The translations under genes and the position numbers were made by a program. Shown piece after piece: positions 29,351-53,051 of a stretch of 53,618 nt of DNA. The notes below the pieces were generated by a model. The model searched no databases. It had not been told where the DNA came from and saw nothing but the letters and a program-made list of their open reading frames with translations. Source of the DNA: Eubacteriales bacterium (GTDB lineage: Bacteria > Bacillota > Clostridia > Oscillospirales > RGIG5299); assembly GCA_045542315.1 (NCBI GenBank), contig JAZQKU010000085.1, forward strand, positions 1-53,618, given 5' to 3'. Position 1 is the first letter of the stretch. Each line of letters begins with the position of its first letter.

Positions 29351-29427
29351 CCGCCTGTAGCTCAGCTGGATAGAGTAGCAGATTCCGATTCTGACGGTCG
29401 GGGGTTCGAATCCCTTCAGGCGGGCCA
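29351..29427 (+). tRNA. tRNA-Arg(CCG)
   Basis: Cloverleaf with acceptor CCGCCTG/CAGGCGG, D-arm GCTC/GAGT, anticodon loop TTCCGAT, T-loop TTCGAAT and encoded CCA. Confidence 0.95.
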
Positions 29428-29467
29428 AAGCAACAAAGCACCTCAAAAGAGGTGCTTTATTGTTTTT
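29428..29467 (+). terminator. Terminator-like hairpin after tRNA-Arg; part of the repeat unit, recurring at 29613-29652
   Basis: AAGCAACAAAGCACCTC-AAAA-GAGGTGCTTTATTGTTTTT. Confidence 0.75.
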
Positions 29468-29472
29468 AAAAG

Positions 29473-29612
29473 GAAGGGATTCGAACTGCGAATGGGAGCA
29501 GCTGCGAGCATTAGCTACGCAGATGCGACGGAGAAACAGTCCGGGGGACTGTTTTGAATTCGCCCAAGGGAGCGCGGTGCGCGACTGCGAGAAAATCCCT
29601 TCAGGCGGGCCA
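29473..29612 (+). repeat. tRNA-linked structured element, copy 1, ending in a duplicated tRNA-Arg 3' end
   Basis: Begins GAAGGGATTCGAAC, the reverse complement of tRNA 29404-29417. Core AAACAGTCC-GGG-GGACTGTTT hairpin. Ends AATCCCTTCAGGCGGGCCA, identical to 29409-29427. Confidence 0.9.
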
Positions 29613-29657
29613 AAGCAATAAAGCACCTCAAAAGAGGTGCTTTGTTGTTTTTAAAAG

Positions 29658-29792
29658 GAGGGGATTCGAACTGCGAATGGGAGCAGCTGCGAGAGAAGTG
29701 AGCAGATGCGACGGAGAAACAGTCCGGGGGACTGTTTTGAATTCACCCAAGGGAGCATAAGCGAGCGCGAGAAAATCCCTTCGCCTCCACCA
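29658..29792 (+). repeat. tRNA-linked structured element, copy 2, ending in a different (Ala/tmRNA-type) 3' end
   Basis: Near-identical to copy 1 apart from hairpin tips and a few substitutions. Ends AATCCCTTCGCCTCCACCA. Confidence 0.9.
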
Positions 29793-29825
29793 GAAAAAAG
29801 CATCGACTTTGTCGGTGCTTTTTTC
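29793..29825 (+). terminator. Terminator-like hairpin after the CGCCTCCACCA end
   Basis: GAAAAAAGCATCGAC-TTT-GTCGGTGCTTTTTTC. Confidence 0.75.
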
Positions 29826-29828
29826 AAC

Positions 29829-30006
29829 TAAATCCACCCTTGCGGGTGGGTGAAATATTGCTTTGCAATGTGAAATACGCCTGCGGCGTGTGAAATTCGC
29901 CTCGACGGCGAGTGGGTGGATTTAATTTCATTTGATGCGATAGCATCTAATTTCACAATTTACGGAGTAAATTATTTCACCGTGAGCGTAAGCGAACGAT
30001 TTCACT
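29829..30006. repeat. GTGAAAT/ATTTCA(C) box array with mini-hairpin spacers
   Basis: GTGAAAT at 29850, 29870, 29890. ATTTCA(C) at 29925, 29950, 29974, 29999. A different short hairpin follows each GTGAAAT box and separates successive ATTTCA(C) boxes. Confidence 0.85.
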
Positions 30007-33409: not shown

Positions 33410-33459
33410 TCGCCCAAGGGAGCATAAGCGAGCGCGAGAAAATCCCTTCAGGCGGGCCA
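33410..33459 (+). repeat. 3' fragment of the tRNA-linked element plus tRNA-Arg 3' end duplicate (attR-like)
   Basis: TCGCCCAAGGGAGCATAAGCGAGCGCGAGAAAATCCCTTC matches copy 2 (29743-29782) with one mismatch, then continues AGGCGGGCCA. Confidence 0.88.
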
Positions 33460-36491: not shown

Positions 36492-36790
36492 GCATGACTG
36501 AATAATGCGTTGATGCGGGAGGTTGCCGATAAGGTATTTACTGCACCTTTTCGGGTTTTTCCGCGGAGTAAGTCCGATGCAAGACGTCGGGCGGCAGGCA
36601 ATCGGTACACAGATTAAAAGCGGGCCATCTTTGAGCCGCGTTCTTTAATTGATGTGTTAGTTGCTCCGATTTTTTCATAGGGAAAAAATCGGTTTTATTG
36701 TGTAAAGACAAAAAACGCACGGAACGGTGTACACAAGAAAGCCTGCGAATAGGTCAATGAAATATCTCAAAGAAAGAGAATTTAGGAGGC
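36492..36790 (+). promoter_or_regulatory. Long structured S10 5' leader (candidate clostridial r-protein leader RNA)
   Basis: ~300-nt untranslated region between the promoter and rpsJ. Contains pairings such as GGTTGCC/GGCAATC and CCGATTTTTTC/GAAAAAATCGG. Confidence 0.5.
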
Positions 36791-52662: not shown

Positions 52663-52738
<76 letters not shown>

Positions 52739-52778
52739 AATAACAGAACCACCCAAAAGGGTGGTCTTATTATTTTTT
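52739..52778 (+). terminator. Terminator-like hairpin after tRNA-Ala
   Basis: ACCACCC-AAAA-GGGTGGT followed by a T-rich tract. Confidence 0.7.
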
Positions 52779-52791
52779 GCGAAGCAAAAAG

Positions 52792-52910
52792 AAGGGGGAT
52801 CGAACTGCGAATGGAAGCAGAAGCGCCGCGAAGCGGGGCAGATGCGACGGAGAAACAGTTCGGGGAACTGTTTCGAATTCGCCCAAAGGAGCGAAGCGAC
52901 TGCGAGAAAA
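52792..52910 (+). repeat. tRNA-linked structured element, copy at tRNA-Ala
   Basis: Begins AAGGGGGATCGAAC, the reverse complement of tRNA-Ala 52715-52728. Continues TGCGAATGG...GCAGATGCGACGGAGAAACAGTTC-GGG-GAACTGTTTCGAATTCGCCCAA...GCGAGAAAA, as in the tRNA-Arg copies. Confidence 0.9.
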
Positions 52911-53051
52911 CACATTTATATCAAGCAACCTCCATCGTTTCGATGGGGGTGTTAATTTGCTGTAAATGCAGCACTGCAAAAGCGTATAATATGAATTCGG
53001 ATAACCAAAATGATGAAAAGGCGCCATCTTGGTTACTAAATTATCATTGAA

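Follow-up and report, generated by a model that had tools for sequence, protein, structure and literature searches.

A small non-coding element behind bacterial tRNA genes with a leader antisense to the tRNA T-arm

Certain tRNA and tmRNA genes are followed, directly after their CCA end, by a non-coding element of 120–190 nt. Each unit begins with its own terminator, followed by a leader antisense to tRNA positions 53–66, a folded body tipped by the hairpin AACAGTCCGGGGGACTGTT and a copy of tRNA positions 58–76. We consider, with a probability of roughly 45%, that this is a mobile element which is non-autonomous and acts in the form of a folded single strand, its leader being a built-in complement of the T-arm whose match is maintained by templated correction. 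The insert is flanked by direct repeats of the tRNA 3′ end, the right-hand copy being identical over positions 58–76 in most of 50 records. The insertion point lies after CCA in most copies and after the discriminator region in L100, where the tRNA gene has no CCA. No open reading frame fits within the 120–190 nt. The complementarity between leader and tRNA ranges from 8 to 17 nt, and in one tandem family (L038) both terminator and leader are lacking.

The window, meaning the whole stretch of 53,618 nt over which positions are counted, contains the following features.

29351–29427, + strand: tRNA-Arg(ccg), host gene (ARAGORN; Rfam tRNA, 56.5 bits; inverted repeat I5)
29404–29417, + strand: tRNA-Arg positions 53–66, the segment mirrored by leader 1 (inverted repeat I5)
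29428–29472, + strand: start of copy 1, its own intrinsic-terminator hairpin (stem 29435–29458) and a short spacer (terminator scan; palindrome I3)
29473–29486, + strand: leader 1, GAAGGGATTCGAAC, exact reverse complement of tRNA-Arg positions 53–66 (I5)
29487–29593, + strand: body of copy 1 (consensus fold of 16 genus copies)
29594–29612, + strand: terminal copy 1 of tRNA-Arg positions 58–76, AATCCCTTCAGGCGGGCCA (direct repeat D1; helix 1)
29613–29792, + strand: element copy 2, tandem to copy 1 (D1–D3, I12; comparison with tmRNA 3′ ends)
29793–29825, + strand: terminator hairpin 3′ of the array (I11)
29825–29901, + strand: Gut-1 RNA motif, a neighbour outside the element (Rfam RF01706, 90.4 bits)
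52663–52738, + strand: tRNA-Ala(cgc), second host gene (ARAGORN; Rfam tRNA)
52739–52912, + strand: third copy in the window, with terminator, leader AAGGGGGATCGAAC (52792–52805) and body (hairpin 52855–52871)

In the body of copy 1, TGCGAAT (29487–29493) pairs with ATTCGCC (29558–29564), enclosing a variable hairpin (around 29496–29529) and the conserved hairpin AAACAGTCCGGGGGACTGTTT (29534–29554); a small hairpin and then GCGAGAA form the 3′ part. The first 9 nt of terminal copy 1 pair with the leader (helix 1). Copy 2 has the order terminator, leader GAGGGGATTCGAAC (29658–29671, one mismatch to the T-arm), body (hairpin 29719–29735) and terminal copy (29774–29792), the last consisting of AATCCCTT and then CGCCTCCACCA, a foreign acceptor like that of tmRNA. 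The hairpin at 29793–29825 is probably the older downstream flank of tRNA-Arg. The third copy is truncated at its right end and has no tRNA 3′-end copy; its ortholog in genome G002 (L023) retains the terminal copy. The initial annotation of this DNA had mentioned neither the start of the unit right after CCA with its own terminator nor its end in a tRNA 3′-end copy that is sometimes foreign.

That annotation had described each leader as an exact antisense copy of the T-arm region of the adjacent tRNA, and all of its sequence statements hold. At tRNA-Arg, GTTCGAATCCCTTC (29404–29417) is 100% complementary to 29473–29486, with 55 nt between the arms; at tRNA-Ala, GTTCGATCCCCCTT (52715–52728) is mirrored by AAGGGGGATCGAAC. 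Both mirrors span tRNA positions 53–66. The sequence said to be constant after the leaders, TGCGAATGG, is present 3′ of both, and a terminator-type hairpin lies between the arms of each pair (stem 29435–29458 at tRNA-Arg). In the whole window, exact inverted repeats with arms of 14 nt or more and a gap of 20–100 nt occur twice, namely as these two mirrors; since none was found by the same criterion in any of 100 block shuffles, chance is excluded. The proposed long fold-back is also recovered: folded as single-stranded DNA, 29399–29612 pairs the leader with the T-arm around the hairpin (−58.6 kcal/mol, z −7.45, a value not reached in any of 200 shuffles). As was further suggested, the leader is able to pair with the downstream AATCCCTTC (29594–29602), a 9-nt inverted pair that forms helix 1 of the consensus fold. 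The absence of an acceptor and of a cloverleaf led us to reject a decayed antisense tRNA gene.

The relation between leader and tRNA was examined in 52 records in which the hairpin comes immediately after a tRNA or tmRNA. In 40 of these the leader can be anchored on TYGAA; in the other 12 the motif is missing, a recognisable leader is absent and the record was left out of the covariation test. Over positions 59–66 the 40 anchored leaders match the neighbouring tRNA at 6.5 of 8 positions and other tRNAs at 4.3 of 8, counts to which copies from related genomes do not contribute independently. The match to the neighbour is 8/8 in 15 copies and 7/8 in 11, and none of 10,000 permutations gave a sum as high as that observed. 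Base 57 covaries too, a matching leader being found beside 9/9 TTCAA tRNAs and 29/31 TTCGA tRNAs. Thus the leader fits its own neighbour far better than other tRNAs at the variable T-stem and acceptor-edge positions; the opposite result, a fit no better than to a random tRNA, did not occur among the 40 anchored copies. Orthologous loci of the genus behave likewise. At tRNA-Arg(ccg) in four species the T-loops read TTCGAAT, TTCGACT, TTCAAAT and TTCAACT and each leader fits its own, and at tRNA-Ala(cgc) positions 64–66 are CTT in genomes G000 and G002 and ACC in G003, with the leaders following. Sites within positions 59–66 are informative if the bases of the tRNA and of the terminal copy are unlike; at 3/3 such sites the leader sides with the tRNA.

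The initial annotation offered two origins for this match: a leader copied from the target during insertion, or a built-in guide that picks the target by base pairing; as an alternative it named read-through RNA that might sequester the T-arm. Both origins stand in part. For the guide, terminator, spacer and leader are common to the near-identical G003 copies found after tmRNA and after tRNA-Gln, which lends it partial support. The tmRNA-type distal part of the leader is retained behind tRNA-Gln. For copying, the evidence points only to local templated correction: position 59′ alone is changed to the base of the new host, both in the G003 tRNA-Gln copy and in copy 2 of the window. The second copy at the G003 tmRNA locus and the tRNA-Gln copy differ by about two substitutions in about 105 nt, one of them opposite position 59 and host-matched in each, an argument that we formed post hoc with the data already seen. 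Simple fold-back synthesis, primed at the terminator, is unsupported, since no complement of the acceptor strand is present, and was dropped.

Position 59 was converted in two hops and positions 63–66 were not. Correction of internal mismatches with persistence of terminal ones is what would be expected if the leader had no role at all, an approximate inverted T-loop copy near a tRNA being made to match by replication template switching without selection, and the variable extent of the complementarity (8 to 17 nt) fits this too. We nevertheless regard this explanation as very unlikely. It leaves unexplained why an antisense T-arm segment occupies the same place in elements of four phyla with unrelated bodies, why the leader pairs with its own terminal copy with compensatory changes, and why the distal positions 64–66 covary at the orthologous tRNA-Ala(cgc) loci.

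A consensus fold of 16 genus copies comprises 34 pairs, is 95.8% paired and shows compensatory change at 13 pairs, again counted over copies that are not all independent; none of 500 shuffles was as good and slid alignments were 35–47% paired. Each unit has one conserved hairpin. The + strand is favoured because G–U cells outnumber A–C cells in the fold by 17 to 3 (counted by hand). Mini-hairpins of the C-GNA-G type occur 31 times on the + strand and 5 times on the − strand (mean 11.3 and maximum 23 in 300 shuffles), with GCGNAGC accounting for 22 and 2. One report describes GCGNAGC and GCGNNAGC, both found at the single-strand origins of phages, as DNA motifs that form extraordinarily stable mini-hairpins (PMC13037366). 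The GNA mini-hairpins hint that the acting strand is DNA of tRNA-sense polarity.

A multi-helix fold with conserved unpaired bases is equally typical of functional RNA and of single-stranded DNA. The unit may be a tRNA-trailer or small RNA gene, whose leader would pair with the T-arm in read-through transcripts (processing or quality control) or whose folded RNA with a tRNA-like 3′ end would have a function of its own, spreading with tRNA flanks by duplication and recombination. The fold and its tRNA-sense orientation fit this, and the boundaries just after CCA on both sides coincide with tRNA 3′-processing sites. A function in place would also account for a leader that tracks the resident tRNA at orthologous loci, and the tRNA over the terminal copy at the three informative sites. 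We judge it improbable all the same. A strong terminator lies 5′ of the element, no promoter-like site was found inside and the GNA triloop hairpins are a DNA-stability motif. Foreign right-end acceptors, an insertion in a phage-borne tRNA fragment and 42-nt relatives in transposase genes would be left unexplained. Rfam searched over the element at E up to 10 returned nothing save a spurious CsrC match far below its threshold, and no family matched the related loci. Two other RNA candidates were rejected: a CsrA sponge, suggested only by GGA motifs and a 29-bit sub-threshold match, and a hammerhead-like core around the hairpin of the 42-nt relatives, where two core positions differ from the hammerhead consensus and Rfam gave no match.

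Several observations argue that the element moves. The tRNA-Gly(tcc) locus is filled in genomes G004 and G002 and empty in G000, where CCA is directly followed by the terminator that in G004 lies 3′ of the right-hand copy. Tandem arrays occur in the window and at L018, L024, L033, L037, L038 and L042. Genome G003 has eight copies, with near-identical ones behind tmRNA, tRNA-Gln and tRNA-Ala, and terminator and spacer travelled with the element to two of these loci (tmRNA and tRNA-Gln). A foreign acceptor is found in the terminal copy, with the left tRNA intact, at 29774–29792 of the window, in L207 (twice) and in L208, and also in L175, which lies outside the counted set. The foreign part starts where the complementarity to the leader stops. 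Where the two copies have different acceptors (29774–29792, L207 and L208), the gene itself carries the functional version, with the foreign version in the distal copy. Crossover by an integrase in the T-loop, with the element supplying a new 3′ end, was dropped since the foreign copies are on the wrong side. At the G003 tmRNA locus, two copies bracket a 2.3-kb cargo gene, a 720-aa lipoprotein-like reading frame with no Pfam family.

Sequencing runs were searched as Logan contigs, which do not show starts, ends or strand. Neither a free nor a circular form of the element was seen. DNA contigs that join 29427 to 29792, 29795 or 29815 resemble an empty site, with sides of only 21–28 nt at 90% likeness, the shorter side measuring 24–28 nt for the joints to 29792 and 29795; such contigs may stem from other organisms. 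In two RNA runs the tRNA and Gut-1 parts are covered and 29464–29745 has no contigs, except for a depth of 4.4 in one bin.

The same layout occurs in families of Oscillospirales, in Bacteroidaceae, in Betaproteobacteria and in one Kaiserbacteria genome, the leader geometry deviating in the Betaproteobacteria and the CPR genome. This spread over several phyla is an addition to the initial annotation. The hairpin was found in 94 of 401 genomes of the order, and 42-nt relatives interrupt transposase genes. One body type serves at least 20 different tRNA specificities. Searches with blastn of 29404–29800 against phage and plasmid collections, and of E. coli genomes with a 56-nt mini-element, gave no match. 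A literature search turned up no title on such an element; the hairpin strings and Gut-1 RNA led to unrelated work only. The recurrence of the design in distant bacteria suggests a mobile element, so far undescribed, which would locate tRNA genes through base pairing.

Candidate enzymes were sought in five genomes of the genus. The IS200/IS605 transposase (Y1_Tnp, TnpA) is present in 1/5, as a copy broken by stop codons, and in none of the five genomes richest in hairpin copies, which are at least 99% complete and carry a different repeat family. The IS110 transposase (Pfam DEDD_Tnp_IS110), a TnpB-type nuclease (PF07282, above cut-off) and a reverse transcriptase (Pfam RVT_1) were each found in 0/5 genus genomes. 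Clustering of reading frames around 138 and then 30 hairpin loci gave no recurrent protein apart from one phage lineage, plus translated repeats. Around the truncated G002 copy behind tRNA-Gly no recombinase lies within 4.4 kb; its 3′ side holds an HTH gene, unknown reading frames, a hydrolase and a dehydrogenase.

Among the candidate enzymes, tyrosine recombinases alone are present in 5/5 genus genomes. Moreover, in a phage lineage of IMG/VR (11 contigs), one to three copies lie between a Phage_integrase gene with arm-type repeats (L042, 9216–10463, E 1.6e-27) and a tRNA-Pro 3′ fragment. The element may be a double-stranded miniature attachment site recombined in trans by the tyrosine integrases of tRNA-targeting phages or islands, with crossover near the CCA end; the leader would then be an inverted core-site copy or a by-product and not a guide. 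Direct repeats of the tRNA 3′ end, tandem arrays and bracketed cargo as in G003 are classic for integrase-driven islands. This explanation nonetheless seems unlikely to us. At least 20 tRNA specificities for one body are hard to fit with core sites read by protein, and G002 and G004 have only one recombinase of about 300 aa each. None of the ten tyrosine-recombinase loci of the genus has an element, and none adjoins a genus copy. Arms at least 55 nt apart are too far for one tyrosine-recombinase core. Nor are compensatory changes in four internal helices, + strand G–U pairs and GNA mini-hairpins expected of a double-stranded site.

In the reading we prefer, the active form of the element would be a single strand, most likely of DNA, that is folded and has tRNA-sense polarity. 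Its leader would pair either with the T-arm of the tRNA to the left or with the element's own terminal copy, and both junctions would therefore share one shape, a 9–14-bp duplex followed by the unpaired acceptor strand and CCA. This shared shape would mark the joining points and would limit insertion to tRNAs whose positions 58–66 match the leader. The leader would be inherited with the element, and its match to the resident tRNA upheld by templated correction (heteroduplex repair or quasi-palindrome template switching), by selection or by both.

A more far-reaching version seems doubtful to us. It holds that a protein-less family across several phyla, acting as a folded single strand, uses a programmable internal complement of 9–14 nt to home in on virtually any tRNA gene at its 3′ end, the conserved hairpin AACAGTCCGGNGGACTGTT being the handle for a broadly distributed unrecognised enzyme that would also move other repeats, including the 42-nt in-frame insertions in transposase genes. 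If true, this would be nucleic-acid-guided insertion outside the IS200/IS605, IS110 and CRISPR-transposon classes. Should the leader set the target, the element would be a natural case of programmable DNA insertion beside a chosen tRNA gene, which stays undamaged and receives a terminator with the insert, and a search for the enzyme reading the conserved hairpin would be worthwhile. Under the more conventional explanations, too, the analysis accounts for a recurrent unannotated sequence class behind tRNA genes of gut Clostridia and other phyla, identifies the tRNA 3′ flanks of these small genomes as landing pads for several non-coding element families and provides a clean natural case of an inverted repeat co-evolving with a tRNA T-arm.

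Among known systems, IS200/IS605 elements and their miniature derivatives (PATEs) transpose by single-strand ‘peel and paste’, target and cleavage sites being read by a short internal guide. Our element resembles them in its non-coding miniature copies, its hairpin-rich single strand of fixed polarity and the lack of a target duplication of the classical kind; the internal segment that complements the sequence next to the joining point would likewise make targeting reprogrammable. It differs in its longer complement (9–14 nt against about 4), in a single leader that would be used at both ends, and in carrying a terminator and a 19-nt target copy; of the Y1 transposase only one broken copy was found in the genomes searched. 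A classical MITE has terminal inverted repeats and a short target-site duplication made by a DDE transposase. Here leader and terminal copy give a 9-nt inverted pair, and the flanking repeat is the 19-nt tRNA-end copy, sometimes foreign and hence no duplicate of the target.

Folded single-strand sites are also used by tyrosine recombinases, as in integron attC and in the attP(+) hairpin of CTX phage, which is recombined by XerCD. As in these, pairing between two inverted segments of a single strand restores the chromosomal target as a duplex, conservation is higher for structure than for sequence, tandem arrays form, no gene lies inside and recombinases of the host or acting in trans would be needed. 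The target, however, is the tRNA T-arm and not attI or dif, and the GTTRRRY core is missing. The integron attC boxes R″ and R′ read RYYYAAC and GTTRRRY; here the leader ends in TCGAAC and the target is GTTCGAA or GTTCAAA, with C and not a purine as the fourth base. Crossover by a tyrosine recombinase falls inside the paired core, whereas the foreign terminal copies would place the joining point outside the duplex, at CCA.

Genomic islands and prophages integrate in the 3′ end of tRNA and tmRNA genes, at T-loop and 3′-end sublocations. Islands at ssrA in Dehalococcoides are the subject of one such study (PMC3146451). Like such integrated elements, ours has the tRNA 3′ end as a direct repeat, forms tandem arrays at a single tRNA and can bracket cargo (G003 tmRNA locus). 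Unlike them, it has 120–190 nt without an integrase gene, one body type for many tRNAs, an antisense leader, and an intact native 3′ end on the left with the imported copy on the right. The IS110 bridge RNA is comparable as a structured non-coding part with segments that match both target strands and give programmable specificity; the DEDD transposase was found in none of the five genus genomes, however, and here the sense and antisense segments fall on common target bases and do not flank a core. Finally, correction of quasi-palindromes by template switching would account for an internal mismatch between leader and T-arm that has turned into a match, but as a maintenance process it explains neither the element nor its spread.

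The window contains two tRNA genes by ARAGORN prediction; 3′ of each come a terminator-type hairpin and, after it, a leader of 14 nt. The initial annotation had described this leader as an exact antisense copy of the neighbouring T-arm and is borne out: both leaders are exact reverse complements of tRNA positions 53-66. They account for the only two exact inverted repeats of ≥14 nt with a 20-100-nt gap in the window, and 100 shuffles of the window gave none. TGCGAATGG directly follows both leaders.

Features of the window
29351-29427: tRNA-Arg(ccg), ARAGORN
29404-29417 and 29473-29486: Arg inverted pair, exact reverse complement, tRNA positions 53-66
29774-29792: terminal copy with a foreign acceptor strand
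29825-29901, + strand: Gut-1 RNA motif (RF01706, 90.4 bits)
29920-30000, − strand: weaker inverted Gut-1 copy (30 bits)
33410-33449: weak similarity to the 3′ portion of the element body (81% over 43 nt), no tRNA nearby
36502-36593: S10-Clostridia ribosomal protein leader (RF03136, 44.6 bits), ordinary
52663-52738: tRNA-Ala(cgc), ARAGORN
52715-52728 and 52792-52805: Ala inverted pair, exact reverse complement, tRNA positions 53-66, read off the sequence

At tRNA-Arg there are tandem repeats of a 185-nt unit, each of which starts directly after CCA and comprises a terminator hairpin, the leader, a body of ~107 nt carrying the hairpin AAACAGTCCGGGGGACTGTTT, and a terminal copy of tRNA positions 58-76. 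When the tRNA end and the first unit are folded as DNA, the leader pairs with the T-arm. The leader of the second unit, GAGGGGATTCGAAC, has one mismatch to the T-arm; its terminal copy consists of AATCCCTT then CGCCTCCACCA, the latter being the acceptor end of tmRNA genes in related genomes and not of tRNA-Arg. Another terminator and then the Gut-1 RNA motif (RF01706, 90 bits) lie 3′ of this unit. The tRNA-Ala copy has a truncated right end; the orthologous copy in G002, another genome of the genus, is complete.

The assembly holding the window (G000; 1.48 Mb, 86.5% complete) has further copies behind tRNA-Glu(ttc) and the tmRNA 3′ end, as well as one short copy without a tRNA. The element is present in 5/5 genomes of the family, all of one genus, at tRNA-Arg(ccg), Ala(cgc), Ala(ggc), Glu(ttc), Gly(tcc), Gln(ctg), Trp(cca) and tmRNA. 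The tRNA-Gly(tcc) site is empty in G000 and filled in its relatives G004 and G002; in G000 the CCA is directly followed by the terminator and flank found 3′ of the right-hand tRNA-end copy of G004. The tmRNA 3′ end of G000 (contig C40, 19700-19840), GGGGCTCGACTTCACTCGCCTACACCA, carries several changes compared with relatives that would disrupt the T-stem; an artefact of assembly or population, or a copy in decay, could account for this. Antisense T-arm segments are also observed in G000 at tRNA-Ala(ggc) (C25, 36002-36077, complement; GGGATCGAACCC) and tRNA-Trp (C26, 17060-17135; TCTGAACCCGC), where body and hairpin differ from the element; the design seems to be present in more than one sequence family.

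Other repeats also sit at tRNA 3′ flanks. The Gut-1 pair of the window lies directly 3′ of the tRNA-end remnant and terminator, and this part is covered by RNA-library contigs. Gut-1-like hairpin arrays come right after the terminators of tRNA-His, tRNA-Ser(gct), tRNA-Arg(acg) and tRNA-Ser(tga) in G000, and Gut-1 may be another tRNA-flank-linked element. A third repeat family consists of long palindromes of AGTGAA/TTCACT-like repeats after the terminators of six G000 tRNA genes: C2 (Gly tcc), C25 (Asn), C46 (Pro ggg), C54 (Arg cct, Thr cgt) and C94 (Gln).

Of 401 genomes sampled from the order, 94 have the central hairpin pattern ACAGTYCGGNGRACTGT and 3 the reversed control pattern. The exact 19-mer of the hairpin is found in 18 IMG/VR contigs and at a minimum of 120 loci in species-representative genomes. 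We collected 60 records in which the hairpin lies ≤260 nt 3′ of a tRNA or tmRNA gene (≤130 nt in 52). Nearly all have one order: gene, terminator, antisense T-arm segment, long hairpin-tipped stem, small hairpin and tRNA-3′-end copy. The hosts include Oscillospiraceae, Acutalibacteraceae, Ruminococcaceae, one Bacteroidaceae genome, three Betaproteobacteria and one Kaiserbacteria genome; in the last two groups the antisense part spans the acceptor strand, in place of or besides the T-loop. No Rfam family describes the element, and a main-text literature search by words and hairpin string found no paper describing it. The observation holds, and what the window shows is a small part of an extensive, undescribed family.

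The genomes with most hairpin copies, G041 (24 copies), G259 (19), G154 (17), G284 (16) and G170 (13), hold a repeat that differs from the tRNA element and is built round the same hairpin. These structured intergenic repeats of ~200 nt have several hairpins, the conserved one at the end, and are not beside tRNA genes; they match no Rfam family and show no recurrent ORF. The same hairpin tip is found in a 42-nt hairpin element, which sits in frame within IS66, IS3 and IS5 transposase reading frames of Rhodobacterales, an Acidobacteria MAG and viral contigs (loci L064, L086, L088, L097, L107, L127, L048 and L049). The plasmid records with this element number 26 and are all from Rhodobacterales; plasmid pKON1 has an empty site, and no E. 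coli genome has a match. The Rhodovulum copy has a further in-frame insertion, 36 nt long and bearing a different hairpin.

The check proposed in the initial annotation, whether leaders covary with their own tRNAs, was run on the 40/52 records with a leader anchored on the T-loop complement (TYGAA); the 12 left out for want of TYGAA have variant leaders in some cases and no leader in L038, L116 and L135. At positions 59-66 the mean match is 6.5/8 to the neighbouring tRNA (8/8 in 15 copies, 7/8 in 11; n = 40) versus 4.3/8 to other tRNAs (n = 40 leaders), counts that span >20 tRNA specificities and include non-independent kin. The observed total was reached in 0/10,000 re-pairings of leaders and tRNAs, and the outcome named as refuting, a match no better than to a random tRNA, was not seen. 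The longest exact match averages 10.9 nt for the neighbour versus 6.3 nt for other tRNAs, and purine 57 covaries with the leader (TTCAA 9/9, TTCGA 29/31). More telling than this kin-affected set is a comparison of orthologous tRNA-Arg(ccg) loci across four species: the four T-loops all differ, and the leader fits its own each time. At the orthologous tRNA-Ala(cgc) loci positions 64-66 vary and the leaders vary along with them.

The leader had been suggested to be either copied from the target or built in; there is evidence for each: the distal leader is inherited with the element, and the base opposite position 59 fits the host. The tRNA-Gln leader of G003, a further genome of the genus, is still of tmRNA type in its distal part and matches positions 53-62 only. 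Opposite position 59 the tmRNA and Gln copies differ, each fitting its own host; when the Gln copy is aligned with the second copy of the tmRNA locus, this base is among ~2 substitutions in ~105 nt. The second Arg unit of the window has the same mosaic. Informative sites, at which the terminal copy departs from the tRNA within 59-66, number three, and the leader agrees with the tRNA at 3/3. Since the internal mismatch is fixed while end mismatches stay, we read this, in an argument made after the data were seen, as the mark of correction between the paired arms, by heteroduplex or template switch. A passive quasi-palindrome is a rival reading that appears very unlikely.

Sixteen aligned genus copies give a five-helix fold (leader/terminal copy; TGCGAAT/ATTCGCC; variable hairpin; central hairpin; small 3′ hairpin) of 34 pairs, with 95.8% of cells paired and 13 pairs changed on both sides. 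None of 500 shuffles was as good and slid controls paired just 35-47%. Helix 1 is partly forced because leader and terminal copy both match the tRNA; the remaining helices count as independent evidence. By our own count, the alignment has 17 G-U cells versus 3 A-C cells, so it is the tRNA-sense strand that folds. In 52 bodies, C-GNA-G mini-hairpins number 31 on this strand and 5 on the opposite one (shuffle mean 11.3), and GCGNAGC 22 versus 2. GCGNAGC and GCGNNAGC are "mini-hairpin DNA" motifs, noted at single-stranded phage DNA priming sites (PMC13037366); they hint at DNA as the active form but do not prove it. A trailer RNA, also of tRNA sense, is an unlikely alternative beside these motifs. 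Our preferred reading, at a probability of roughly 0.45, is a non-autonomous element that, as a folded single strand with the leader as internal complement, homes to tRNA 3′ ends.

Family searches found no enzyme for the element. The sole IS200/IS605-type Y1 transposase match in the five genus genomes is one broken copy with internal stop codons (G000, C75:19932-20287), and the genomes with most hairpin copies have none (0/5). IS110, reverse transcriptase and, above cut-off, TnpB were each found in 0/5 genus genomes. Tyrosine recombinases are present in 5/5 (a single one in G002 and in G004), none of their genes adjoining an element copy. In one phage lineage the element lies within the attachment region with an integrase adjoining, and the leader fits the phage's own variant of a tRNA-Pro fragment. 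We regard a double-stranded mini-attP moved by integrases, a rival reading, as unlikely.

G003 has near-identical copies behind tmRNA, tRNA-Gln and tRNA-Ala. Its tmRNA and Gln copies have terminator and spacer in common besides the body, and thus the terminator is part of the element, whose left boundary falls at CCA. We note that at the tmRNA locus (L207, G003:C8:22600-26400) a full and an internally deleted copy bracket a 2.3-kb segment, whose gene encodes a lipoprotein-like product of 720 aa matching no Pfam family. A terminal copy with an acceptor strand unlike that of the adjacent intact gene is observed at four places (29774-29792 in the window, twice at the G003 tmRNA locus and at the G003 tRNA-Ala(cgc) locus); no tRNA with these foreign ends was found among the sequences collected in this analysis. 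The foreign part starts at around position 66, where leader complementarity stops, as would be expected if a target check covers positions 58-66 only. The foreign ends fit a terminator-leader-body-terminal-copy unit placed after CCA and bearing the copy of an earlier target. In the usual genomic islands at tRNA 3′ ends, the element provides the gene with its new 3′ end; here the arrangement is reversed, the intact gene being left in place and the foreign copy lying distal.
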